In this document: one piece after another, positions 9,616 to 60,806 of the stretch
Layout of the letters: every line of letters starts with the position of its first letter
Position numbering within the stretch: position 1 is the stretch's first letter
NCBI GenBank assembly: GCA_963754655.1
Contig: CAVWGN010000001.1
Location: forward strand, 2,528,001-2,592,000
Source of the DNA: an uncultured Chlamydiae bacterium
Lineage (GTDB): Bacteria > Chlamydiota > Chlamydiia > Chlamydiales > Parachlamydiaceae
Length of the DNA: 64,000 bases
Reading direction: 5' to 3'
Notes under the pieces: generated by a model
Database searches by the model: none
What the model was told of the DNA's origin: nothing
Seen by the model: the letters and a program-made list of their open reading frames with translations, nothing else
Made by a program: the position numbers and the translations under genes

Positions 9616-11244
9616 TTAATTGATTACACCCTTGATTATATTACAAAAACTTAAGTTTAAAGATTGCAAAGATGTCAAATCCTTTAAATGCGCAAGCCCT
9701 TGATAGGTTAGCTTCGCGCATCCCTCTAATTTTAAAAATTGCAAAGAAGTCAAATTCTTTAAATGCACAAGCCCTGGATCGGTTAGCTTCGTCTGTCTTA
9801 AATCTAAAGATTGCAAAGTGTTCAAATTCTTTAAATGCGCAAGCCCTTTATTGGTTATATTACAAAAACTTAAGTTTAAAGATTGCAAAGAGGTCAAATC
9901 CTTTAAATGCGCAAGCCCTTGATCGGTTAGCTTCACGCATTTACTGAAGTTTAAAGATTGCAAAGAGGTCAAATTCTTTAAATGTGTAAGCCCTTGATTG
10001 GTTATGTTACAAAAACTTAAGTTTAAAGATTGCAAAGATGTCAAATCCTTTAAATGCGCAAGCCCTTGATCGGTTAGCTTCACGCATTTACTGAAGTTTA
10101 AAGATTGCAAAGAGGTCAAATTCTTTAAATGTGTAAGCCCTTGATTGGTTATGTTACAAAAACTTAAGTTTAAAGATTGCAAAGATGTCAAATCCTTTAA
10201 ATGCGCAAGCCCTTGATCGGTTAGCTTCACGCATTTACTTAAGTTTAAAGATTGCAAAGATGTCAAATTCTTTAAATGCACAAGCCCTTGATCGGTTAGC
10301 TTCGTCTGTTTTAAATCTAAAGATTGCAAAGAGTTCAAATTCTTTAAATGCGCAAGCCCTTGATTGGTTATATTACAAAAACTTAAGTTTAAAGATTGCA
10401 AAGAGGTCAAATCCTTTAAATGCGCAAGCCCTTGATTGGTTATATTACAAAAACTTAAGTTTAAAGATTGCAAAGAGGTCAAATCCTTTAAATGCGCAAG
10501 CCCTTTATTGGTGATCTGCTGACAATCTTTTAAATTAAGAGAAGTAAGATGAGTCAAGTTTTGGCTCAGTTTTTTAAGATCTGTATCTGTGATATTGCTA
10601 TTAATTAAATCTAGACTTTCACAATTGCGGCAATGCTTAAGAACAAGTTGCAAATCAGATTGGGAATAACTCTTAAGGGTTAAATTTTGAATCAAGCCTC
10701 CAATCTGTGCATTCAATACTTGATTGAATGAAGAAAGACGATGGAGGTTAGCTTCGAAAAGCAAGGCGGTAATGGGAGGATGAGAAGGAACAGATTTTAA
10801 GCTTTTGCAGACGGAACCTATTCCTTGTCTGCTATGAAAAATAATATTTTGCCAAATATCCAAAGGAAGAGTGTCAAGTGTCAAAAGAGATTCTCCTTCA
10901 GTAGCTTTTTTAATTTGAGAATTATCTTGAGACAAAAATTCTTCTTCATCTTCAGCAGAAAAATCTATCTCGTGTTGATCAACAAAAAGACTCCCAAGAT
11001 CTGAATCTTGGTTGTGAATGCGATCTGAATCTTGAATGGAATCTGGGTCTTGAATAGGATTGAAAAGTTCTTTTGCTTTAAAATAAGAAGAGCAATAGGA
11101 AAAAGCAGCATAACAAGCTGCTAACAAACCTAAAGCTACAGAGACAATGATTAAAATTTTTTTATTTTGACTCGTTAAAGTCGACTTAAACTTATCTATA
11201 AGCAAAATAGGACAAAAAGAATTAAAAGCCGGAAAATTAAACAA
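9616..11244 (-). CDS. LRR protein with N-terminal TM and F-box-like motif (paralogue A; last repeat frameshifted)
   Basis: LDTLPLDIWQNI F-box-like motif and 24/25-aa Cys-containing LRRs. A 4 bp deletion near 9634 relative to paralogue B removes the shared C-terminal tail. Confidence 0.9.
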   Translation of the reverse strand: MFNFPAFNSFCPILLIDKFKSTLTSQNKKILIIVSVALGLLAACYAAFSYCSSYFKAKELFNPIQDPDSIQDSDRIHNQDSDLGSLFVDQHEIDFSAEDEEEFLSQDNSQIKKATEGESLLTLDTLPLDIWQNIIFHSRQGIGSVCKSLKSVPSHPPITALLFEANLHRLSSFNQVLNAQIGGLIQNLTLKSYSQSDLQLVLKHCRNCESLDLINSNITDTDLKKLSQNLTHLTSLNLKDCQQITNKGLAHLKDLTSLQSLNLSFCNITNQGLAHLKDLTSLQSLNLSFCNITNQGLAHLKNLNSLQSLDLKQTKLTDQGLVHLKNLTSLQSLNLSKCVKLTDQGLAHLKDLTSLQSLNLSFCNITNQGLTHLKNLTSLQSLNFSKCVKLTDQGLAHLKDLTSLQSLNLSFCNITNQGLTHLKNLTSLQSLNFSKCVKLTDQGLAHLKDLTSLQSLNLSFCNITNKGLAHLKNLNTLQSLDLRQTKLTDPGLVHLKNLTSLQFLKLEGCAKLTYQGLAHLKDLTSLQSLNLSFCNIIKGVIN

Positions 11245-12318: not shown

Positions 12319-13473
12319 TCATAATCTCTTAAACCCTCTGGCCATGTTAATTTTTCCTAGGAGAATTGGGCCGAAATAAATCCCCATTATCCCTACTTCA
12401 ATTTCTCTGAGTCCTACATATTCCCCTCGTAGCATTTCACTAATGAAGAAATAGGTGCCCTTCCAAGAAATCAATCCTCCTGCGCAAACTTTTCTGACTT
12501 CATAGTAACTGGGGTATTCAATGGGTTTGAATTTACCATCCCAAATAGGTCGAGAAGGTTTATACACGGAAGCTGGTGTTTGCTGGCCTAATGCTTCGTG
12601 GTAACGTCTGTTATTGTAATATTTTTTGAATTGAAGAAATTTTTCCTGTTGAAGAGATAACGTCAAGGCTGGGGGATTTGCTGTCTCATTTTTTAGAGTT
12701 AAATGAAACCTCTCATGCCTACCGTTTTGTTCAGGACATCCAGGATCGATCCATTCTGGAGTAACGCCAATTTTGATTAATTTAATTGCAATGCTAGATA
12801 ATCGACCTACAGCCAAAGAAGCAAAAGGGGGACCATTATCACTTCGCAATTTCTTTGGTAATCCGTACACATAAAAAAGTTGTTCTAATTCCTTCCAAAC
12901 ATCACATCCCCGTTTCCTTGGCATATGTTGACAATGAAGAAGATAGCGAGAAAAGCCATCTGTAACTGTTAAAGGTTCGCATATTTGATTATCACCTGTT
13001 CGAAACCACCCTTTAAAATCATACATCCAGGTATCATTTGAAGCGTTGCAATCGCCCAATGGAGCTGTTTGAGTAACATGTCTCCTGTGGATTCGTTGAT
13101 TGGACAAATTATTTCTCTTTAAAATATTACCGATACTGGCTTCAGAAGGCACTAATAATTCACGATAGTGATTTACAAGCTCGGCTCGTATTTTTTTAGG
13201 GCCCCAGTTAGGAAATTGCTTGCGAATACTGACAGTTGCTAATTCAACTTCTTTTGAAATTTGATTAGGGTGGGAAAAGGGAGCCCGAGAAAGGTCTTCA
13301 AGGCCCTTTTCTCCGTTTTTTTTAAATCTATTTAACCATTTATATCCTGTTTTAGTACTAATATTGTAACTTTCACATAAATCTGCAAAAGCTACATGGC
13401 GGCGATCAGTGCGTAAAGCTTGATCTATGAATTTTTTACGTTCCTCTGTAGTCGACATAATCCTCCAAGGCAT
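12319..13473 (-). CDS. IS481-family DDE transposase
   Basis: HTH (ISTKTGYKWLNRF), WGPKKI, and rve core WMYDFKG / SDNG / NGRHERFHLTLK; GGAGG RBS. Confidence 0.93.
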   Translation of the reverse strand: MPWRIMSTTEERKKFIDQALRTDRRHVAFADLCESYNISTKTGYKWLNRFKKNGEKGLEDLSRAPFSHPNQISKEVELATVSIRKQFPNWGPKKIRAELVNHYRELLVPSEASIGNILKRNNLSNQRIHRRHVTQTAPLGDCNASNDTWMYDFKGWFRTGDNQICEPLTVTDGFSRYLLHCQHMPRKRGCDVWKELEQLFYVYGLPKKLRSDNGPPFASLAVGRLSSIAIKLIKIGVTPEWIDPGCPEQNGRHERFHLTLKNETANPPALTLSLQQEKFLQFKKYYNNRRYHEALGQQTPASVYKPSRPIWDGKFKPIEYPSYYEVRKVCAGGLISWKGTYFFISEMLRGEYVGLREIEVGIMGIYFGPILLGKINMARGFKRL

Positions 13474-14102: not shown

Positions 14103-14555
14103 ATGGCACAGTCACTTGCTAGCATTCTTATCCATATTATATTTAGCACCAAAACACGTCGGCCATTTATACAACCACCAATCATTAGAGATCTTTATTG
14201 TTATATGGCAAATATTGTGCGTGCGTATGGTTGCCATGCTTTTGAAATTGGAGGAGTTGAAGATCATGTTCATCTTCTTGTTTCTTTACCTCGTACTTTG
14301 CCATTGAGTAAGCTTATTGAGGAGGTTAAAAAAGGATCTTCCAAATGGATAAAAACAAATGGAGAGTTTTATTTAGATTTTGCTTGGCAAAATGGTTATG
14401 GTGCATTTTCTATAGGCCAATCAGGTTTTCCAGCTCTGCAAAAATATATTCAGAATCAAAAAGAACACCATAAAACACTAACATTTCAAGATGAATATCG
14501 CGAATTTCTAAAAAAATATCAAATCGAGTTTGATGAAAAATATGTTTGGGATTAG
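14103..14555 (+). CDS. tnpA: IS200/IS605-family HUH (Y1) tyrosine transposase associated with REP-like palindromes, copy 1
   Basis: HIIFSTK.R, HUH motif DHVH, WQNGY and catalytic YIQNQ. Bracketed by 23 bp inverted repeats at 14077-14099 and 14560-14582; no tnpB. Confidence 0.92.
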   Translation: MAQSLASILIHIIFSTKTRRPFIQPPIIRDLYCYMANIVRAYGCHAFEIGGVEDHVHLLVSLPRTLPLSKLIEEVKKGSSKWIKTNGEFYLDFAWQNGYGAFSIGQSGFPALQKYIQNQKEHHKTLTFQDEYREFLKKYQIEFDEKYVWD

Positions 14556-16232: not shown

Positions 16233-16685
16233 ATGGCACAGTCACTTGCTAGCATTCTTATCCATATTATATTTAGCACCAAAACACGTCGGCCATTTAT
16301 ACAACCACCAATCATTAGAGATCTTCATTGTTATATGGCAAATATTGTGCGTGCGTATGGTTGCCATGCTTTTGAAATTGGAGGAGTTGAGAATCATGTT
16401 CATCTTCTTGTTTCTTTACCTCGTACTTTGCCATTGAGTAAGCTTATTGAGGAGGTTAAAAAAGGATCTTCCAAATGGATAAAAACAAATGGAGAGTTTT
16501 ATTTAGATTTTGCTTGGCAAAATGGTTATGGTGCATTTTCTATAGGCCAATCAGGTTTTCCAGCTCTGCAAAAATATATTCAGAATCAAAAAGAACACCA
16601 TAAAACACTAACATTTCAAGATGAATATCGCGAATTTCTAAAAAAATATGAAATCGAGTTTGATGAAAAATATGTTTGGGATTAG
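16233..16685 (+). CDS. tnpA: IS200/IS605-family HUH tyrosine transposase, copy 2
   Basis: Three aa differences from copy 1 (Y32H, D54N, Q140E); inverted repeats at 16207-16229 and 16690-16712. Confidence 0.92.
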   Translation: MAQSLASILIHIIFSTKTRRPFIQPPIIRDLHCYMANIVRAYGCHAFEIGGVENHVHLLVSLPRTLPLSKLIEEVKKGSSKWIKTNGEFYLDFAWQNGYGAFSIGQSGFPALQKYIQNQKEHHKTLTFQDEYREFLKKYEIEFDEKYVWD

Positions 16686-17003: not shown

Positions 17004-19037
17004 CTATAAAATGATGTGTAAACGATTCCTAAAAAAGTCTCTTAATTGATTACACCCTTGATTGGTTATATTACGAAAACTTAAGTTTAAAGATTGCAAA
17101 GATGTCAAATCCTTTAAATGCGCAAGCCCTTGATCGGTTAGCTTCGCGCATCCCTCTAATTTTAAAGATTGCAAAGAGGTCAAATTCTTTAAATGTGCAA
17201 GCCCTTGATTGGTTATATTACAAAAACTTAAGTCTAAAGATTGCAAAGAGGTCAAATCCTTTAAATGCGCAAGCCCTTGATCGGTTAGCTTCGCGCATGC
17301 CTGTAATTCTAAAGATTGCAAAGAGGTCAAATCCTTTAAATGCGCAAGCCCTTGATCGGTTAGCTTCGCGCATCTCTCTAATTTTAAAGATTGCAAAGAG
17401 GTCAAATTCTTTAAATGTGCAAGCCCTCGATTGGTTATATTACAAAAACCTAAGTTTAAAGATTGCAAAGAGGTCAAATCCTTTAAATGCGCAAGCCCTT
17501 GATCGGTTATATTACAAAAACTTAAGTCTAAAGATTGCAAAGATGTCAAATTCTTTAAATGCATAAGCCCTTGATTGGTTATATTACAACAATTTAAGTT
17601 TAAAGATTGCAAAGATGTCAAATCCTTTAAATGCGCAAGCCCTTGATCGGTTAGCTTCACGCATTTACTTAAGTTTAAAGATTGCAAAGAAGTCAAATTC
17701 TTTAAATGCACAAGCCCTGGATCGCTTAGCTTCGTCTGTCTTAAATCTAAAGATTGCAAAGAGTTCAAATTCTTTAAATGCGCAAGCCCTTTATTGGTTA
17801 TATTACAAAAACTTAAGTTTAAAGATTGCAAAGAGGTCAAATCCTTTAAATGCGCAAGCCCTTGATCGGTTATATTACAAAAACTTAAGTCTAAAGATTG
17901 CAAAGATGTCAAATTCTTTAAATGTGCAAGCCCTTGATTGGTTATGTTACAAAAACTTAAGTTTAAAGATTGCAAAGATGTCAAATCCTTTAAATGCGCA
18001 AGCCCTTGATCAGTTAGCCTCACGCATTTACTTAAATTTAAAGATTGCAAAGATGTCAAATCCTTTAAATGCGCAAGCCCTTGATCAGTTAGCCTCACGC
18101 ATTTACTTAAGTTTAAAGATTGCAAAGAGGTCAAATTCTTTAAATGCACAAGCCCTGGATCGGTTAGCTTCGTCTGTCTTAAATCTAAAGATTGCAAAGA
18201 GTTCAAATTCTTTAAATGCGCAAGCCCTTGATTGGTTATATTACAAAAACTTAAGTTTAAAGATTGCAAAGAGGTCAAATCCTTTAAATGCGCAAGCCCT
18301 TTATTGGTGATTTGCTGACAATTTTTTAAATTAAGAGAAGTAAGATGAGTCAAGTTCTGGCTCAGTTTTTTAAGATCTGTATCTGTGATGCTCTTATTTA
18401 AAGATAGACTTTCACAATTGCGGCAATTCTTAAGAACAAGTTGCAGATTAGATTGAGAAGTTTTTATAAGGGTTAAAGTTTTAATCGAAGCTCCCACCTC
18501 TGAATTCAATACTTGATTGAATGAAGAAAGACGATGACAGTTAGTTTCGAAGAGCAGTGCAGCAATGGGAGGATGAGAAGGAACAGATTCTAAGCTTTTG
18601 CAGACGGACCCTATTCCTTGTCTGCTATGAGAAATAATATTTTGCCAAATATCCAAAGGAAGAGTGTCGAGTGTCAAAAGAGATTCTCCTTCAGTAGCTT
18701 TTTTAATTTGAGAATTATCTTCAGACAAAAATTCTTCTTCATCTTCAACAGAAAAATCTATCTCGTGTTGATCAACAAAGAGACTCCCAAGATCTGGATC
18801 TTGGTTGTGAATGCGATCTGAATCTTGAATGGAATCTGGGTCTTGAATAGGATTGAAAAGTTCTTTTGCTTTAAAATAAGAAGAGCAATAGGAAAAAGCA
18901 GCATAACAAGCTGCTAACAAACCTAAAGCTACAGAGACAATGATTAAAATTTTTTTATTTTGACTCGTTAAAGTCAACTTAAACTTATCTATAAGCAAAA
19001 TAGGACAAAAAGAATTAAAAGCCGGAAAATTTAACAA
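17004..19037 (-). CDS. LRR protein with N-terminal TM and F-box-like motif (paralogue B)
   Basis: N-terminus nearly identical to 9616-11244; more LRR units; intact C-terminal tail. Confidence 0.92.
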   Translation of the reverse strand: MLNFPAFNSFCPILLIDKFKLTLTSQNKKILIIVSVALGLLAACYAAFSYCSSYFKAKELFNPIQDPDSIQDSDRIHNQDPDLGSLFVDQHEIDFSVEDEEEFLSEDNSQIKKATEGESLLTLDTLPLDIWQNIISHSRQGIGSVCKSLESVPSHPPIAALLFETNCHRLSSFNQVLNSEVGASIKTLTLIKTSQSNLQLVLKNCRNCESLSLNKSITDTDLKKLSQNLTHLTSLNLKNCQQITNKGLAHLKDLTSLQSLNLSFCNITNQGLAHLKNLNSLQSLDLRQTKLTDPGLVHLKNLTSLQSLNLSKCVRLTDQGLAHLKDLTSLQSLNLSKCVRLTDQGLAHLKDLTSLQSLNLSFCNITNQGLAHLKNLTSLQSLDLSFCNITDQGLAHLKDLTSLQSLNLSFCNITNKGLAHLKNLNSLQSLDLRQTKLSDPGLVHLKNLTSLQSLNLSKCVKLTDQGLAHLKDLTSLQSLNLNCCNITNQGLMHLKNLTSLQSLDLSFCNITDQGLAHLKDLTSLQSLNLGFCNITNRGLAHLKNLTSLQSLKLERCAKLTDQGLAHLKDLTSLQSLELQACAKLTDQGLAHLKDLTSLQSLDLSFCNITNQGLAHLKNLTSLQSLKLEGCAKLTDQGLAHLKDLTSLQSLNLSFRNITNQGCNQLRDFFRNRLHIIL

Positions 19038-47525: not shown

Positions 47526-48668
47526 TCAACGGAAAATTCTTGCTCCTTCTGACAGTTTCGGCAGGTTTTGCAAATTAGAGCACCGGCTAAAGTCAAGTAC
47601 TTGCACATTTGGCAACTCAGGCAGGCTTTGCAAATTAGAGCACCAGCCGCAGTAAAGCTCTTGCACATTTGGCAGCTCAGGCAGGCTTAGCAGATTATAG
47701 CACCGGATGCAATCAAGTTTTTGCACATTTGGCAACTCAGGCAGGCTTTGTAGACTAGAGCACCAACTGCAGTTAAGCTTTTGCACATTTGGCAGCCCAG
47801 GAAGGCTTAACAGATTAGCGCACCAGCTGCAGTTAAGCTCTTGCACATTTGGCAGCTCAGGCAGGCTGTGCAACTTTAAGCACTTGCAGTTAAGCTTTTG
47901 CACATTTGGCAACTCAGGCAGGCTTAACAGATTAGCGCACCAGCTACAATTAAGCTCTTGCACATTTGACAGCTCAGGCAGGCTGTGCAGATTAGTGCAC
48001 CAGTTGCAGTTAAGCTCTTGCATATTTGGTAGCTCAGGCAGACTTTGAAGATTAGAACATCCGCTGCAGTCAAGCACTCGCACAATTGGCAGCTCAGGTA
48101 AGTTTTGAAGATTAGAGCACCCCTTGCAGTCAAGCCTTATGAGATTGCTTGCCTGAATTGGTAAATTTCTTATTTTATCTGATTTAATCATTAACTGATT
48201 AAGATTGGGGCACTTTTTAAATAATTCTTCAATGTCGCTTTCCTCTAAGTCCGGAAATTCTATTAGGTTTACTCCTGTTAGATCATGACTGATCGCATAC
48301 TGGATAGCCTCTTTTGCAGTGTTGCATCTATATTTTTTAAGAGAAACAAGCTGCTCGCTAGCCCATTCTTTTTCCTCATTTTTTCCAATCTTAGTGAGTT
48401 GCTTGGAAAAATGCATATTTTCCAATCCACTTTGAACTCCTCCCTTTGCGTAAGGAATGTCAAACTTGCGCGGAGGAATATGGAAACAAACTTTCCGCCA
48501 TATTTCTTCTGGCAATTGAGGAAACTCGTTGCTAGTAAAGAATACACTCTCAGCGATATTTATAATTATCCTCTCGTCTTTTTGAATCTCTTCTGGAATT
48601 GATGGCAAATCCCCTTGTCTAAATTGATCTTCTGAAACAGTAAATTGATTATTTATCATTTTTATCAT
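47526..48668 (-). CDS. F-box-like/LRR protein, 20-aa repeat family, copy 1
   Basis: LPEEIWRKV motif; 60 bp repeats LPELPNVQxLxCxxCxNLxS. Confidence 0.9.
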   Translation of the reverse strand: MIKMINNQFTVSEDQFRQGDLPSIPEEIQKDERIIINIAESVFFTSNEFPQLPEEIWRKVCFHIPPRKFDIPYAKGGVQSGLENMHFSKQLTKIGKNEEKEWASEQLVSLKKYRCNTAKEAIQYAISHDLTGVNLIEFPDLEESDIEELFKKCPNLNQLMIKSDKIRNLPIQASNLIRLDCKGCSNLQNLPELPIVRVLDCSGCSNLQSLPELPNMQELNCNWCTNLHSLPELSNVQELNCSWCANLLSLPELPNVQKLNCKCLKLHSLPELPNVQELNCSWCANLLSLPGLPNVQKLNCSWCSSLQSLPELPNVQKLDCIRCYNLLSLPELPNVQELYCGWCSNLQSLPELPNVQVLDFSRCSNLQNLPKLSEGARIFR

Positions 48669-48845: not shown

Positions 48846-49988
48846 TTAAAATAAAATGCTTACTCCGTGCAGTTGCAGGCTGTGCAAATTATGGCAATTG
48901 CTACAATTAAGCTTTTGCACATTTGGCAGCTCAGGCAAGCTTTGCAGATTAGAGCAATGGGTGCAGTCAAGCTCTTGCACATTTGGCAGCTCAGGCAGGC
49001 TTTCCAGATTAGAGCATCCGCTGCAGTTAAGCTTTTGCACATTTGGCAACTCAGGCAAGCTTTCCAGATTAGAGCATTCGCTGCAGTTAAGCTTTTGCAC
49101 ATTTGGCAACTCAGGCAAGCTTTCCAGATCAAAGCACTCCCAGCAGTCAAGCTTTTGCACATTTGGCAACTCAGGCAAGCTTTGCAGATTATAGCATTCG
49201 CTGCAGTTAAGTTCTTGCACATTTGGCAGCTCAGGCAAGCTTTCCAGATCAAAGCACTCCCAGCAGTCAAGCTTTTGCACATTTGGCAGCTCAGGCAGGC
49301 TTTGCAGATTAACGCACCCGCTGCAGTCAAGCTTTTGCACATTTGGCAGCTCAGGCAAGCTTTGCAGATTAGAGCAATGGCTGCAGGTAAGCTCTTGCAT
49401 ATTTGGCAGCTCAGGCAAGCTTTGCAGATTATCGCACCAGCTGCAGTCAAGTTTTATGAGATTGCTTGCCTGAATTGGTAAATTTCTTATTTTATCCGAT
49501 TTAATTATTAATTGATTAAGATTGGGACACTTGGTAAATAATTCTTTAATGTCATTTTCCTCTAAGTCTGGGAATTCTCTTAGATTTGCTCCTGTCAGAT
49601 CATGATCAATCACATACTGGACAGCCTCTTTTGCATTTTTGCATTTATATTTTTTAAGAGAAACCAGTTGCTCGCTAGCCCATTCTTTTTCCTCATCTTT
49701 TGCAATCTCACTCAATTGCTTCGAGGAAAAATACATCTCTTCCAATCCACTTTGAACACCTCCCTTTTTGTAAGGAATGTCAAAATTGCGTGGAGGAATA
49801 TGGGAACAAATTTTCCGCCATACTTCTTCCGGCAATTGAGGAAGCTCGTTGCTAGTAGAGAACATACTCTGCGCGATATTCATTATCTTCATCACGTCTG
49901 TTTGAATTTCTTCTGGAATTAATGACAAACCCTCTGGTCTAGATTGATCCTCTAAAACATTAAAGTGATTGCTACTTATTGTTTTCAT
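48846..49988 (-). CDS. F-box-like/LRR protein, 20-aa repeat family, copy 2
   Basis: Tandem paralogue of 47526-48668. Confidence 0.9.
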   Translation of the reverse strand: MKTISSNHFNVLEDQSRPEGLSLIPEEIQTDVMKIMNIAQSMFSTSNELPQLPEEVWRKICSHIPPRNFDIPYKKGGVQSGLEEMYFSSKQLSEIAKDEEKEWASEQLVSLKKYKCKNAKEAVQYVIDHDLTGANLREFPDLEENDIKELFTKCPNLNQLIIKSDKIRNLPIQASNLIKLDCSWCDNLQSLPELPNMQELTCSHCSNLQSLPELPNVQKLDCSGCVNLQSLPELPNVQKLDCWECFDLESLPELPNVQELNCSECYNLQSLPELPNVQKLDCWECFDLESLPELPNVQKLNCSECSNLESLPELPNVQKLNCSGCSNLESLPELPNVQELDCTHCSNLQSLPELPNVQKLNCSNCHNLHSLQLHGVSILF

Positions 49989-55023: not shown

Positions 55024-55468
55024 TTCGGAAGTAAGGAAACAAACAGTGGACTTTTGGCAGTGACACTGCATTTTTTTTTCTTATTCGTTTGCCGCTGTGG
55101 CGAGCACAAGGCAAGAATATAAGATGTCCATGCTGGAGAAAATACCTCCATAGATGGGTGGAGCGAATTTATATTTGTTCAAGGTAAAAGACCGAACAGC
55201 AACATTTATTTTAACGAATTAAAGTGACTGCCTTCTTCTACTCCTTAACGTCATATCTAAAAGTATTATCTCTTATCTTGTCATAATAGGTGCCGGATGC
55301 TGGCCATTAATCAAAGCTTTAAAAATATAGGCTTGGCTTTTAACACTGAAAGAATACGAATAGTATTTTATTAATGAAAATTTTATTTTATAATTTTTTA
55401 GTTTAGTGTAAAAAAGTTTTTGTTGACATTAAATTAAATTTATTTTAAAACTTTTATTAAATTTTAAA

Positions 55469-56401
55469 ATGGAATTTTATATGAATACGGAAATTTCAAA
55501 TAATTATACTCAACAATTAATTACCTCGTCTTTGGATGATGTGAAAACAAAATCTGTGAAACAGTCCTCGAAAAAAAAATGGACAGATGCTGAAAATATT
55601 CAATTGAGCAATTATATAAAAGAATATGGAAAGAACTGGAAGAGAATTGCAGAGAAGATACCTGGTACAACTCATCAGCAATGTGCTTATCATTGGAAAG
55701 TTGCATTGAACTCTGAAATTAAGCATGGAGAGTGGTCGCAAGAGGAAGACGAGAAATTGAAACAACTTGTAGAGCAAGGGGGAGAAAGATGGTCAGAGAT
55801 AGCCAAACAGATTCCGGGTAGGACTAATCAGCAATGTAGGAAGCACTACCATGCGCGTTTAAATCCATTTATCAAACATGGAAAATGGACAAAAGAGGAA
55901 GATGATCAATTAAAACAAGTCGTTCAACGCCTCGGACAGGATAAATGGGATCTCATTGCAAAGGAATTGTCTAATAAAACAAATCAACAATGTGCAAATC
56001 GTTGGCAAGTATTATATCCAAAATATAATAAGCAGCGCCCTAGAAGTGAAACAAATTCTCCTATTGAAGAAAGGCCTTCAAAAAAATTTAAAAAAAATCA
56101 TTCTTCTGACGTATCGGATTTGAATGAAAATAGAATTGCTTTAAATCCGAATTCTACAGAATTAGATCAGCCCCAACCCCAGCTTCCACCTCAACCGATT
56201 TTATTAAATGAACCTATTCCTAAACAATTAGAGCAACAACCTCAAGATATCCGTGTTTTGGATTCTATTTTTCAACAATCGTTGACCTGTCATAACGAGC
56301 TCTTTACTTTTGAATCGTACCCCTCTTTTACGAATCAGGATTTGACTTTTGAAGAATTAGACAAAAATCTTTCGTTTTCTTGGATAGATGATCTTAACTA
56401 A
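55469..56401 (+). CDS. Three-repeat Myb/SANT DNA-binding protein (eukaryote-like)
   Basis: Three W-x(18-19)-W-x18-W/Y repeats (WTDAEN, WSQEED, WTKEED; IAxxxxxxTxQQC), basic RPSKKFKK and an acidic C-terminus. Confidence 0.9.
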   Translation: MEFYMNTEISNNYTQQLITSSLDDVKTKSVKQSSKKKWTDAENIQLSNYIKEYGKNWKRIAEKIPGTTHQQCAYHWKVALNSEIKHGEWSQEEDEKLKQLVEQGGERWSEIAKQIPGRTNQQCRKHYHARLNPFIKHGKWTKEEDDQLKQVVQRLGQDKWDLIAKELSNKTNQQCANRWQVLYPKYNKQRPRSETNSPIEERPSKKFKKNHSSDVSDLNENRIALNPNSTELDQPQPQLPPQPILLNEPIPKQLEQQPQDIRVLDSIFQQSLTCHNELFTFESYPSFTNQDLTFEELDKNLSFSWIDDLN

Positions 56402-56719
56402 GACTTAATTAGGATAACGCGATGTGCGAATTTTCCAAAGGAAAATTACATGCAAATTAACGGACGACAAGGTACTCAAGTTACAAAGGCTCATGGCCTC
56501 TATCTATATTTACTTTGATGTAAATGAAATAGATAGAGAAGTTGTTGAACTTATTATATTACGAGGGAGGATATTTAACGTTCTTCATCAAATCATAAAA
56601 TAGACTTTTTGCGTAATTAAAACGTCCAGCGATCAAGCGAGGAAATCAAATCCAGCGTAACGAATTCGAAAGGAAGGAAGTTTTTTACCCTTTCTGAGCA
56701 TCTAGCTGGATGAAGTCAT

Positions 56720-57919
56720 TCAACGGAAAATTATTACTTCTTTTGGCAGCTCAGGCAAGCTTTGCAGATTAGAGCAAAAGCGGCGGTCAAGCTCTTGCAC
56801 ATTTGGCAGCTCAGGCAGGCTTTGCAGATTAAAACAAAAGCAGCAGTTAAGCTCTTGCACATTTGGCAGCTCAGGCAGGCTTAACAGATTAGCGCACCAG
56901 CTGCAATTAAGCTCTTGCACCTTTGGCAGCAGCTCAGGCAAGCTTTGCAGGTTATCGCAATCGCGGCAGTTAAGCACTTGCACATTTGGCAGCTCAGGCA
57001 GTCTTTGCAGATTAGAGCATTCGCGGCAGTTAAGCACTTGCACATTTGGCAGCTCAGGCAGCCTTTGCAGATTAGAGCAATTGCTGCAGTTAAGCACTTG
57101 CACATTTGGCAGCTCAGGTAGTCTTTGCAGATTAGGACAAAAGCAGCAGTCAAACTCTCGCACCTTTAGCAGCTCAGGCAGCCTTTGCAGATTAGGGCAA
57201 AAGCAGCAGTTAAGCTCTTGCACCTTTGGCAGCTCAGGCAAGCTTTGCAGATTATCGCAATCGCGGCAGTCAAGCTTTTGCACATTTGGCAGCTCAGGCA
57301 AGCTTTGCAGCTTAGTGCACCGGCTGCAGTCAAGCACTTGCACATTTGGCAGCTCAGACAGGCTTTGCAGATTAAAACATTCGCTGCAGTCCAGTCTTAT
57401 GAGATTGCTTGTCTGAGGTGGCAATTTTCTTATGTTATCGGATCTAATCGTTAATTGATTAAGATTTGGACACTTTTTAAACAATTCTTCAATGTCACTT
57501 TCCTCTAAATCCGGAAATTCTCTTAGATTTGCTCCTGTTAGATCATGATTGATCGCATACTGGATAGCCTCTTTTGCAGTGTTGCATCTATATTTTTTAA
57601 GAGAAACAAGCTGCTCGCTAGCCCATTCTTTTTCCTCATTTTTTGCAATCTTACTCAATTGCTTGGAGGAAAAATACATATTTTCTAATCCACTTTGCAC
57701 TCCTCCCTGTTTGTAAGGAATGTCTAAATTGCGTGGGGGAATATAGGAACAGATTTTCCGCCATAATTCTTCTGGCAATTGAAGGAGCTCGTTGCTGTTA
57801 GAAAACACGCTCTCAGCGATATTTATCATTTTCATCTCCTCTTTTTGAATATCTGGAATTGATGAAAAACTCTCTTGTCTAAATTGATCTTCTGAAATAG
57901 AAAATTGATTATTTATCAT
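56720..57919 (-). CDS. F-box-like/LRR protein, 20-aa repeat family, copy 3
   Basis: Paralogue of 47526-48668 with more repeats. Confidence 0.9.
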   Translation of the reverse strand: MINNQFSISEDQFRQESFSSIPDIQKEEMKMINIAESVFSNSNELLQLPEELWRKICSYIPPRNLDIPYKQGGVQSGLENMYFSSKQLSKIAKNEEKEWASEQLVSLKKYRCNTAKEAIQYAINHDLTGANLREFPDLEESDIEELFKKCPNLNQLTIRSDNIRKLPPQTSNLIRLDCSECFNLQSLSELPNVQVLDCSRCTKLQSLPELPNVQKLDCRDCDNLQSLPELPKVQELNCCFCPNLQRLPELLKVREFDCCFCPNLQRLPELPNVQVLNCSNCSNLQRLPELPNVQVLNCRECSNLQRLPELPNVQVLNCRDCDNLQSLPELLPKVQELNCSWCANLLSLPELPNVQELNCCFCFNLQSLPELPNVQELDRRFCSNLQSLPELPKEVIIFR

Positions 57920-58973: not shown

Positions 58974-60806
58974 TTATGTTCTTTTTTTGCAATATAGCCT
59001 TCCTAAATTATAATTTCTTTCCTCTATATTAATTGTTGGATGAAATTCTTGAATAAAATCTTTAACTCTATTTTTCATCTCATATTGATCATTGCTAGAA
59101 TGATATCCAATGCCTGTCACAATAATAAATGGAGAGATGCTTTTTTGAGAGGTTAAGTAGTGATGAATCAGAATGCAAGCTTCTCCATAAGAAAGACCAT
59201 GACAATCTAATAGATCTTGGCCATTTTCTTGTTTTAAAGGAGAAAAATGGGCGATATCATTAAATAAGCTTTTAGCTGCTTCTAACTCTCTTTTTTGAAC
59301 GTAAAAATCCGAAAGAAGGCGAAGCGTGACTTCATCTAGCTGGATACTTACCCTATTCATTTGATTCAAGACCTGTTTGATTCCTGGAACATTTTCCTTT
59401 TTGACGAATAGATTGAGAAGCGTTGTATACGTCACTTCATCTGCATGGAGACCCGCCTCATACATTTGATCCAAGACATGTTTGACTCCTTGCGCATCTT
59501 CCCTTTTAACGTATAGATTGAGAAGCGTATTATACGTCACTTCATTTAGATCGAGATTCACCCTATTCATTTGATCTAAAACACGTTTGATTCCTCGAAT
59601 ATCTTCCTTTTTAACGTATAGATTGAGAAGCGTTGTATACGTCACTTCATCTGCATGGAGACCCGCCTCGTACATTTGATCCAAGACATGCTTGGCTCCT
59701 TGCACATCTTCCTTTTTAACGTATAAATTAAGAAGCGTATTATACGTCACTTCATTGGGATGAAGACCTGCTCTATGCATTCGATCTAAAATATTTTTGG
59801 CTCCTTGAACATCTTCCTCTTTGACGTATAGATTGAGAAGCGTATTATACGTCACTTCATTGGGATGAAGACCCGCTTTATGCATTCGATCTAAAATATT
59901 TTTGGCTCCTTGAACATCTTCATTTTTAACATATAAATTGAGAAGCGTCGTATACGTCACTTCATTTGGATCGAGACCTACTCTATGCATTTGATCTAAA
60001 ATATTTTTGGCTTCTTGAGCATCTTTCTTTTTGACATATAGATTAAGAAGCGTATTATACGTCACAATGCTAGACTCAATGCCAGCTTTTTGCATATTTT
60101 GAAATATTTGAATAGCTTGTTCAGGCTCATTGGCCTTTACATAAGCTTGAATGAATGAAGTATAGGTATAAACATCCGGCTTTAACCCTGCCTGAATCAC
60201 ATTGTCAAAAATCTTTTTTGCCGTTTTTGCTTTTTTTTCTCTTGCTGCTTGAGCAAGCGCTTGATTATAAGGCATAAGCTTTGGATCTGAACGCTGCTTA
60301 TTTGGCTTCGATGTGCCAATAGGTATTCGGCTATCAAAATTTAACTTTTCTTTTGGTGAATAGAATGAATCTGATCGATTGTCATGTTTGAAGTCTTTCT
60401 TTTCCCACTCTTGTTCGCTCTCTTTTTGTGAAGGATGCTCTGCCACTCTTTTGCCATACTCTCTATCGTTTAAATCTCTTTCTTTATCCCTTAAACCTTG
60501 TCCTTTTGTGTCTATTAAGGCTCGTTTAAATGCTCGGTCAACTTCTTCTTTTGATCTTTCCCTTTTGAGCAAGGACCGACTGCTTTCATTAACAAATGAA
60601 GCATTCGAATCTTTTGTTAAGGAATCTCGTCGTAAATATCTAAAAGAATGAGATGTTTGATTCCAATCAGATGCATGCTCTTTTTGCCTCTCTTTGAATC
60701 TTAAGCGATCTTCTTGCTTTTGCTTATCTTCTTTGCATGGAACAAAATTTGAATCTCTAGATAAAGAATCATTTTTATATGAATGATGTGAATACGTGGG
60801 ATACAT
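58974..60806 (-). CDS. Pentatricopeptide repeat protein with a C-terminal Smr domain (PPR-SMR)
   Basis: About ten 35-aa repeats (aa 177-526), then LDCHG...IIVTGIGYHS...NLGRL Smr motifs. Confidence 0.92.
   Translation of the reverse strand: MYPTYSHHSYKNDSLSRDSNFVPCKEDKQKQEDRLRFKERQKEHASDWNQTSHSFRYLRRDSLTKDSNASFVNESSRSLLKRERSKEEVDRAFKRALIDTKGQGLRDKERDLNDREYGKRVAEHPSQKESEQEWEKKDFKHDNRSDSFYSPKEKLNFDSRIPIGTSKPNKQRSDPKLMPYNQALAQAAREKKAKTAKKIFDNVIQAGLKPDVYTYTSFIQAYVKANEPEQAIQIFQNMQKAGIESSIVTYNTLLNLYVKKKDAQEAKNILDQMHRVGLDPNEVTYTTLLNLYVKNEDVQGAKNILDRMHKAGLHPNEVTYNTLLNLYVKEEDVQGAKNILDRMHRAGLHPNEVTYNTLLNLYVKKEDVQGAKHVLDQMYEAGLHADEVTYTTLLNLYVKKEDIRGIKRVLDQMNRVNLDLNEVTYNTLLNLYVKREDAQGVKHVLDQMYEAGLHADEVTYTTLLNLFVKKENVPGIKQVLNQMNRVSIQLDEVTLRLLSDFYVQKRELEAAKSLFNDIAHFSPLKQENGQDLLDCHGLSYGEACILIHHYLTSQKSISPFIIVTGIGYHSSNDQYEMKNRVKDFIQEFHPTINIEERNYNLGRLYCKKRT

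Follow-up and report, generated by a model that had tools for sequence, protein, structure and literature searches.

Chlamydiae and other intracellular bacteria send proteins into the nucleus of the host; effectors that read host DNA sequence directly are, to our knowledge, rare, the transcription activator-like (TAL) effectors being the classic case. TAL effectors combine an N-terminal export region, a central repeat array, a nuclear-import motif, and an acidic C-terminal end, and their repeats are 33–35 amino acids (aa) long. Environmental chlamydiae of the Parachlamydiaceae type live in amoebae. Here we describe a gene for three tandem Myb repeats found in a 64,000-nucleotide stretch of DNA from an uncultured member of the Parachlamydiaceae (GenBank assembly GCA_963754655.1, contig CAVWGN010000001.1, positions 2,528,001 to 2,592,000 of the forward strand). 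This whole stretch is referred to below as the window, and the gene as the window gene. It is the smallest full member of a family of Myb-repeat arrays whose variability is concentrated at the positions that correspond to base contacts in c-Myb.

The TAL effectors of Xanthomonas and Ralstonia are among the nucleomodulins listed in a review, in the covered text of which Myb appears as a host target only (PMC7819608). The chlamydial family resembles these effectors in logic alone: both have near-identical repeats that vary in number and differ at actual or putative base-reading positions, and both belong to bacteria with type III secretion. The folds are unrelated, the chlamydial units being three-helix Myb units of 50–51 aa, and the two-residue code of the TAL repeat contrasts with several variable residues per Myb repeat. 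TAL effectors are products of plant pathogens, whereas the Myb family belongs to a protist-associated chlamydia.

At the level of a list, a Myb-like gene in an intracellular bacterium is already known, since "Myb-like transcription factors" are named among the eukaryote-like proteins of endosymbiotic Clostridia of termite-gut protists, and such classes of eukaryote-like protein are stated to occur also in Legionella and Chlamydiota (PMC10579323). The covered portion of that source differs from the present case in holding no repeat-array family, no analysis of hypervariable positions, and no functional test. Lineage-specific expansions of eukaryote-like effector candidates have also been described within the Parachlamydiaceae, but these concern ubiquitination-related families, and the covered text has 0 occurrences of "myb" (PMC4209131); the word is likewise absent from the covered text of the Neochlamydia paper in the literature searched. 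No description of a bacterial family of Myb-repeat arrays was found in that literature, although the supplement of PMC10579323 and the cited reviews, which lay outside the search, may name Myb-like proteins of chlamydiae or Legionella. What appears new here, and unusual in a eukaryote-like nuclear effector candidate, is the repeat-array form with focused variability.

A Family of Myb-Repeat Arrays

A preliminary description of the window gene, made from the DNA letters, had presented it as a bacterial mimic of a eukaryotic Myb transcription factor, with the layout of R1R2R3-Myb activators. It is no lone mimic: the window protein is the minimal member of a family of 15 open reading frames (ORFs), identified with phmmer, that contain 83 repeat units by the family repeat profile and 3–14 Myb repeats in the longer members. 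A Pfam scan of the whole genome gave 82 Myb matches, and the top database matches of the window protein are ten proteins on the same contig. Repeat numbers per ORF are 14 (13 full and one partial), 9, 9, 8, 8, 6, 6, 5, 3 (five ORFs, the window gene included), 2, and 1. Eight of the ORFs stand in a 17-kb tandem cluster (C1:1.212-1.229 Mb) that has yidC on one side and a PknD-like kinase gene on the other and is close to dnaA. Another three map to 1.355-1.360 Mb, and single ORFs to 1.633, 2.447, and 2.467 Mb. Eleven ORFs run open from the shared start to the tail, encoding 306–825 aa; in three other genes the tail is shortened or there is an internal deletion.

The members are assembled from common modules. 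Leader DNA precedes an N-terminus of about 30 residues, in which M1, N2, S6, N7, Y9, and Q12 are invariant in 10 sequences; a first repeat, 1–12 middle repeats, and a distinct last repeat follow, and 3' of the repeats come a basic block, a region rich in P and Q, and an acidic/aromatic end. First-middle-last, the minimal form, is that of the window gene. In the family tree this gene is the longest branch of a main group of nine, inside which the branching is unsettled, and the two full-length three-repeat genes at 1.36 Mb make up a second group. Each paralog carries a different ordered string of residues at the variable columns of its repeats.

The three tandem Myb repeats recognized in the preliminary description were confirmed by Pfam, by sequence search of a structure database, by AlphaFold2, and by Foldseek. 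The window protein matches PF00249 (Myb_DNA-binding) at E 5.4e-44, with 148.5 bits against a cut-off of 24.4 and three matched stretches, and PF13921 at E 1.8e-43. Pfam has no family for its N-terminal 33 or C-terminal 135 residues. A sequence search of solved structures gave 40 distinct chains at E<=0.001, headed by c-Myb R1R2R3 (1h88_C, E 6.9e-31) and human SNAPC4 (7xur_A, 3.6e-30). AlphaFold2, given an alignment of ten paralogs, predicts three three-helix units over residues 33–183, with a predicted local distance difference test score (pLDDT) of 78–94; pLDDT is <50 at residues 1–30 and 184–306. Foldseek ranks the c-Myb R1R2R3-DNA complex first for this model (E 2.9e-10), and two adjacent model repeats fit DNA-bound Trichomonas Myb2 with a root-mean-square deviation of 1.2 Å over 94 columns. 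In the second repeat of the window protein, Tyr replaces the third Trp.

The regions outside the repeats are constrained to different degrees, as measured by the ratio of nonsynonymous to synonymous differences (pN/pS). The classical nuclear-import pattern is K-K/R-x-K/R, and the basic block EERPSKKFKKNH fits it. The block reads KK[FI]K[KN] in all 12 paralogs that retain the region, and across 10 group-A tails its 12 residues have a pN/pS of 0.17, against 0.73 for the whole tail. That the block stayed so constant while the family expanded speaks for its being in use in the biology of the bacterium and not a relic. The N-terminal 32 residues contain no hydrophobic signal peptide and constitute a candidate type III secretion signal, and the acidic/aromatic end is a candidate activation or partner-binding motif. 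PPxY motifs are ligands of eukaryotic WW domains, and the tail of one paralog (G000:C1:1357556-1358782) has a short tandem proline/tyrosine repeat with four of them.

Several members are associated with mobile elements. At G000:C1:1223619-1226682, an IS607-like element (serine resolvase plus OrfB_IS605/TnpB) splits one member, at a repeat boundary, into an N-terminal piece with three repeats and a C-terminal piece with two repeats and the tail. A three-repeat paralog at G000:C1:1355268-1356648 ends after its last repeat, where it adjoins an IS5/IS4-type element made up of DUF4096 and DDE_Tnp_1 ORFs; ORFs of matching sizes (136 and 128 aa) lie next to the paralog at 1.632 Mb. One further damaged ORF is a single-repeat fragment.

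Variability of the Middle Repeats

We aligned 81 repeats of at least 45 aa, comprising 13 first, 55 middle, and 13 last repeats. Across the 55 middle repeats, the most variable 7 of the 51 columns are 34 (3.39 bits, 13 residue types), 42, 37, 38, 33, 43, and 41. The base contacts of c-Myb, as given in the covered parts of two papers, are K128, E132, N136, N179, K182, N183, N186, and S187 (PMC3203581, PMC2673439). Placed by means of a conserved Cys anchor and alignment, these contacts (K128/N179, K182, E132/N183, N186, and N136/S187) map to columns 34, 37, 38, 41, and 42, all five of which are within the top seven. The hypergeometric chance of this coincidence is 9e-6, a figure that is descriptive because the alignment had been inspected before the mapping.

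Between middle repeats, identity drops from 0.73 over the remaining 44 columns to 0.30 over the seven variable ones. The same partition is seen in the nucleotide changes, with a pN/pS of 1.01 at the five contact columns and 1.33 at the seven variable columns, versus 0.38 elsewhere. Other exposed charged positions, in helices 1 and 2, show little variation, and the scaffold is kept.

Comparison with 3R-Myb and SNAPc Proteins

The 3R-Mybs (c-Myb/A-Myb/B-Myb and MYB3R) resemble the window protein in having three tandem repeats of about 51 aa followed by a non-Myb C-terminal half. The R1R2R3-Myb layout proposed in the preliminary description stands insofar as the three repeats are collinear with those of 3R-Mybs: BLASTP aligns all three in one stretch with a plant MYB3R, at 38% identity across 208 aa, and with the c-Myb of a crustacean, at 36% across 167 aa. 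It does not stand as to the kind of repeat, there being no R3-type repeat in the window protein, or as to the contact residues. The best local stretch found by phmmer is offset by one repeat, with window repeats 2-3 on c-Myb R1-R2.

Profiles built from the first (F), middle (M), and last (L) repeats of the family make the correspondence more specific. R1 of a plant MYB3R scores higher with the F profile (55.6 bits) than with M (47.9) or L (40.7), and the score of plant R2 with M is 66.7 bits. R1 and R2 of the named 3R-Mybs reach 44–67 bits with the best-matching profile, whereas R3 of four named 3R-Mybs scores 12–40 bits across the three profiles and 16–33 bits with the L profile. The top score with the L profile, 49.2 bits, is that of the last repeat in a SNAPc-like protein of Cryptosporidium. 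R3 of the 3R-Mybs has an IKNHW-type helix (P0037, P0022), whereas the last repeat of the window protein has a Q-Q-C helix.

The preliminary description was right in setting the recognition helices apart from those of c-Myb. Residues equivalent to K128, E132, K182, and N183 are not conserved, and repeat 2 of the window protein has Q and K at columns 34 and 38, the equivalents of K128 and E132. The C-terminal families of c-Myb were not found in the window protein, and a fixed number of three repeats in 3R-Mybs contrasts with 3–14 in the chlamydial family. The chlamydial gene is, moreover, bacterial and intronless, in a genome with a type III secretion system. Judged by these defining features of c-Myb and MYB3R, the window protein is not an R1R2R3 orthologue, because it has no R3-type helix and the key contact residues are not kept.

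SNAPC4 (SNAP190) has 4.5 Myb repeats (Rh, Ra-Rd) and regions that bind other SNAPc subunits. It is like the window protein in the Q-C motif of every repeat, and its match in the Protein Data Bank (PDB) search is nearly as strong as that of c-Myb; it differs in that identity is only 33% over 164 aa and nothing outside the Myb region matches. A role in a small nuclear RNA (snRNA) promoter complex cannot be inferred from this likeness.

Relatives and Origin

In a search that covered 340 relatives, the family was found in the source genome only. Weak Pfam Myb matches, 1–9 per genome, occur in 10 of 40 relatives (three congeners have 1, 1, and 0), and in a sample of the phylum, with at most 22 candidates scored per genome, 2 of 300 other genomes gave a match at E<=1e-10. 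The Myb proteins of other chlamydiae have termini unrelated to those of the family, which suggests several separate acquisitions of Myb domains in the phylum. Such unrelated proteins, with two to four repeats, were seen at L011 (G017), L009 (G006), L031 (G209), and L032 (G249), one of them with R3-like helices.

The window protein is a singleton at 90% identity. No relative was found in a scan of public genome contigs with the window protein or in a scan of metagenome contigs with the family alignment. A scan of 1.84 billion representatives gave 29,408 matches at E<=0.001, and among the best 150 of these no outside protein exceeds 46% identity. The best non-self matches in that set are metagenome multi-repeat Mybs (P0061-P0064 and others; E 1e-128 to 1e-87), which also have 8–12 tandem repeats of the Q-C type. 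They differ from the chlamydial proteins in their N- and C-termini and are 37–46% identical to them; the best repeat-to-repeat identity with the family is <=0.58, against 0.68 within it. P0063 (nine repeats) and P0064 (eight repeats), on contigs of 15 and 25 kb, have a short hydrophobic start that by eye resembles a signal peptide, and may be secreted Myb arrays elsewhere. Three genome-contig loci that matched P0063 were rejected, as the family repeat profile recognizes in them a single weak SANT-like unit or a chance match.

All named relatives outside the source genome are eukaryotic, at 28–47% identity, and include a Cryptosporidium SNAPc-like factor, plant and animal 3R-Mybs, proteins of oomycetes and fungi, and nematode SNAPC4. 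The look-alike clusters of the ESM Atlas with recorded taxa are likewise all eukaryotic. The guanine-plus-cytosine (GC) content of the family genes is 0.34–0.385, compared with 0.388 for the genome, and the window gene has no introns. Given eukaryotic named relatives and genome-like GC, we regard the Myb domain as eukaryotic in type and, as far as composition can tell, long resident in the bacterium; the window protein probably descends from a eukaryotic multi-repeat Myb. The middle repeats have a mean identity of 68% to each other, and no outside repeat compared exceeds 58% identity to them, which fits amplification within the lineage.

Gene Start and Genomic Setting

The preliminary description had placed the gene at 55469–56401, with 310 aa. 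That ORF exists, but its second ATG, 12 nt later, is most likely the true start, giving a protein of 306 aa plus stop. Equivalent Met-Asn codons open all 13 paralogs that have an N-terminus in the alignment, behind a common leader (AAATTTTAA followed by a purine-rich box) that is present in 13 of 13 paralogs in the 200 nt aligned upstream; the start at 55469 falls within this leader, and the public record for the window protein (P0001) is 306 aa long. The sequence features named in the preliminary description, namely a Ser/Thr/Asn-rich N-terminus, three QQC helices, RPSKKFKK, a P/Q stretch, and an acidic/aromatic end, are all in the translation (Table 1).

Table 1. Features of the Myb-repeat gene and of its surroundings, in window coordinates
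Feature	Position	Strand	Remarks
Terminator-like hairpin and T-run	55057..55079	+	Stem 55057-55069, just after lysS; consensus match only
Lineage-specific 3.4-kb segment	55024..58439		From lysS to the gene for a 92-aa membrane protein; holds the Myb gene and a convergent leucine-rich repeat (LRR) gene
Conserved leader, AAATTTTAA then purine-rich box	55459..55480	+	Directly 5' of the most likely start codon
Myb-repeat gene	55481..56401	+	306 aa plus stop
N-terminal 32 residues	55481..55576	+	No Pfam family; predicted disordered; homologous among paralogs
Myb repeat 1, "first" type (F)	55577..55729	+	Profile nearest R1 of 3R-Mybs
Myb repeat 2, "middle" type (M)	55730..55882	+	Unit amplified to at most 12 copies in paralogs
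Myb repeat 3, "last" type (L)	55883..56035	+	QQC helix, not an R3-type helix
Basic block EERPSKKFKKNH and K/R-containing stretch before it	56066..56101	+	Most constrained part of the tail
P/Q-rich linker	56162..56245	+	Predicted disordered
Acidic/aromatic C-terminal end	56288..56398	+	Homologous to paralog tails; short predicted helix at residues 290-296
LRR gene, convergent neighbor	56720..57919	-	399 aa; LRR_4, E 8.7e-17
Pentatricopeptide repeat (PPR) gene	58974..60806	-	610 aa; PPR_2, E 1.1e-89, 9 stretches
LRR gene	9616..11244	-	
LRR gene	17004..19037	-	
LRR gene	47526..48668	-	380 aa; tandem paralog of the next
LRR gene	48846..49988	-	380 aa
IS481-family transposase gene	12319..13473	-	Adjoins LRR genes
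IS200/IS605-family transposase gene	14103..14555	+	150 aa
IS200/IS605-family transposase gene	16233..16685	+	150 aa

The assembly consists of two contigs, of 3.12 Mb (3,123,268 bp) and 35 kb, and is 96.7% complete with 1.8% contamination. The window is bacterial in content, with the nuo operon, mutS, priA, def, rimO, lysS, an efflux system, and insertion sequence (IS) elements. Elsewhere the genome encodes SctN, the type III secretion ATPase (640 bits versus an equivalog cut-off of 604.75), four nucleotide transporters of the ATP/ADP-translocase family (TLC), and a Protochlamydia-type Pom porin (E 3e-72). On the strength of these three features we take the genome, whose chromosome is complete, to be that of an intracellular, environmental chlamydia of the Parachlamydiaceae type.

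The Myb gene lies 445 bp after lysS, from which the terminator-like hairpin separates it; a promoter scan found sites no more numerous than in shuffled sequence (6 vs 6.1). In the congeners G003 and G001, the homologues of lysS and of the 92-aa membrane-protein gene are 139 and 19 bp apart with nothing between them, and in G002 different genes follow lysS. The segment that holds the Myb gene is therefore lineage-specific by the congener layout around lysS.

Other eukaryote-like genes were noted in the surroundings. Five LRR genes lie in the window, one adjoining the Myb gene within the 3.4-kb insert; the product of this neighbor has a weak F-box-like N-terminal stretch (E 0.013, below cut-off), and the other four have a weak likeness, far below the cut-offs, to the type III LRR effectors XopL and SspH2. 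The PPR protein ends in a weak Smr-like stretch (E 0.002, below cut-off), a PPR-plus-Smr layout that is of eukaryotic organelle type and is here found in a bacterium; it has no match in the three congener regions around lysS. The three transposase genes of Table 1 all fall within 4.5 kb and adjoin LRR genes. Outside the window, a RhoGEF-domain protein of 522 aa (E 1.6e-8, over cut-off), encoded at G000:C1:1204926-1206494, 5 kb upstream of the main Myb cluster, is a further eukaryote-like candidate effector.

Proposed Function and Alternatives

We propose that the family encodes secreted, nucleus-targeted DNA-binding effectors with diversified specificities, working by a TALE-like logic, a proposal that we hold with moderate confidence, about midway between doubt and acceptance. 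On this view, a Myb-repeat family derived from eukaryotes expanded in a chlamydial genome, and its minimal form is what the window gene encodes. The disordered, family-conserved N-terminus would direct export via the type III secretion system, the conserved KKFKK block would give entry to the host nucleus, the Myb repeats would bind host DNA by their third helices, and the disordered acidic/aromatic tail would recruit host factors, with activation or some other outcome. As the paralogs differ in the number of middle repeats (1–12) and in the putative base-reading residues, the family would be directed at a wide range of host sequences. The fold, the family with its modular make-up, the focused variability, the insert, and the secretion ATPase are observed; that the proteins are secreted, enter the nucleus, bind DNA, and affect transcription is inferred.

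A number of observations weigh against this proposal. A search of public sequencing runs turned up no RNA run for window positions 55300–56500. A pN/pS of about 1 at the variable columns is equally compatible with relaxed constraint and with diversifying selection. Four of the metagenome multi-repeat Myb proteins are also variable at columns 34, 38, and 42, so the pattern of variability may be partly inherited and older than the transfer. The window protein does not keep the residues by which c-Myb contacts bases, and the middle repeats are close to neutral, their net charge averaging +0.67 (range -4 to +6). The N-terminus and the tail, which would carry the export signal and the partner-binding motif, are weakly constrained (pN/pS 0.76 and 0.73). 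On the side of the secretion system, the secretin 9 kb from sctN scores under its family cut-off (82.5 vs 238 bits). AlphaFold2 folds the individual units of a nine-repeat paralog but gives them no defined overall arrangement (predicted template modeling score, pTM, 0.26), a model that, as it stands, says nothing for or against a superhelix tracking DNA.

The near-neutral charge bears on the possibility that the proteins are indeed secreted and nuclear but that their repeats are SANT-like binders of protein or chromatin, such as histone tails or the partners of host Mybs, in which case variation in helix 3 would diversify protein contacts. The first repeat of c-Myb does not read bases. It has a net charge of -1, and c-Myb R2 one of +7; the middle repeats, with an acidic helix 1-2 half (-2.89), are nearer to R1 than to R2, and it is on c-Myb R1-R2 that phmmer places window repeats 2-3. 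The absence of the c-Myb contact residues and the weak Pfam matches to SANT_DAMP1_like and SLIDE, both below their cut-offs, point the same way. On the other side, the middle repeat is basic in its third-helix half (+3.56), each of the three repeats of the window protein has a net positive charge (+3, +1, and +3), the variable columns coincide with DNA-contact positions, and the best matches in sequence and in fold are DNA-bound Myb domains. We consider protein binding unlikely, though it survives better than the other alternatives.

Next in order is the possibility that the proteins are not secreted at all, and that a eukaryotic domain has been co-opted on the bacterium's own chromosome as a regulator or nucleoid protein, for example in the developmental cycle. 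Helix-turn-helix proteins commonly act in cis in bacteria, PF00249 is found over its cut-off in the Bacillus subtilis control genome as well, and the N-terminus is weakly constrained. Against such a role, the KKFKK block, the long disordered acidic/aromatic tail, and the PPxY motifs would serve no evident purpose within a bacterial cell; congeners of the same lifestyle do not have the family, which argues against a core regulatory function; and eukaryote-like LRR, PPR, and RhoGEF genes lie nearby. This too seems to us improbable.

We find it harder still to accept that the arrays are young DNA, selfishly amplified or decaying, that arose by tandem duplication and unequal crossing-over after one transfer and is now without function. 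The crowding of 8 of the 15 ORFs into one 17-kb tandem cluster, repeats that are in some cases 98% identical, and the pN/pS near 1 at variable sites would suit this explanation, as would the four damaged ORFs (the two halves of the IS607-split member, the IS5-adjoining truncation, and the single-repeat fragment) and the three further genes with shortened tails or an internal deletion. Yet 11 genes remain open from the shared start to the tail, pN/pS is 0.38 in the scaffold and 0.17 in the basic block, the variability sits on one face of a helix and is not spread over the repeat, and the same modules are kept in copies at five separate loci.

An assembly artefact or contamination by host (eukaryotic) DNA, to which the wholly eukaryotic set of named outside relatives and taxon-recorded Atlas clusters might point, is excluded by genomic context and may be dismissed as extremely improbable, since the assembly is in two contigs with little contamination, the intronless gene of genome-like GC lies just downstream of lysS among bacterial operons, and there are copies at five places on the chromosome, with yidC, dnaA, and other core genes as their neighbors.

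The proposal of secreted, DNA-binding nuclear effectors has a bolder form, in which the family would be a second, independent "programmable" DNA-reading effector system, a Myb-fold analogue of the TAL effectors derived from a horizontally acquired eukaryotic transcription factor. Each repeat would read a few base pairs by the hypervariable residues of its third helix, and each of about 11 paralogs, with 3–14 repeats, would target its own extended host sequence after type III injection. We regard this stronger form as speculative and doubtful.

Implications

If the effector proposal is true, the family would represent a novel kind of agent for reprogramming host transcription, and would show as a natural experiment how DNA-binding specificity diversifies. 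It offers a clear case of a transcription-factor domain, probably of eukaryotic origin, that was captured by a bacterium and then amplified, and the window gene, with its three repeats, is the shortest member and the easiest to work with. Should the repeats read DNA in a modular way, they would also be possible designable DNA binders.

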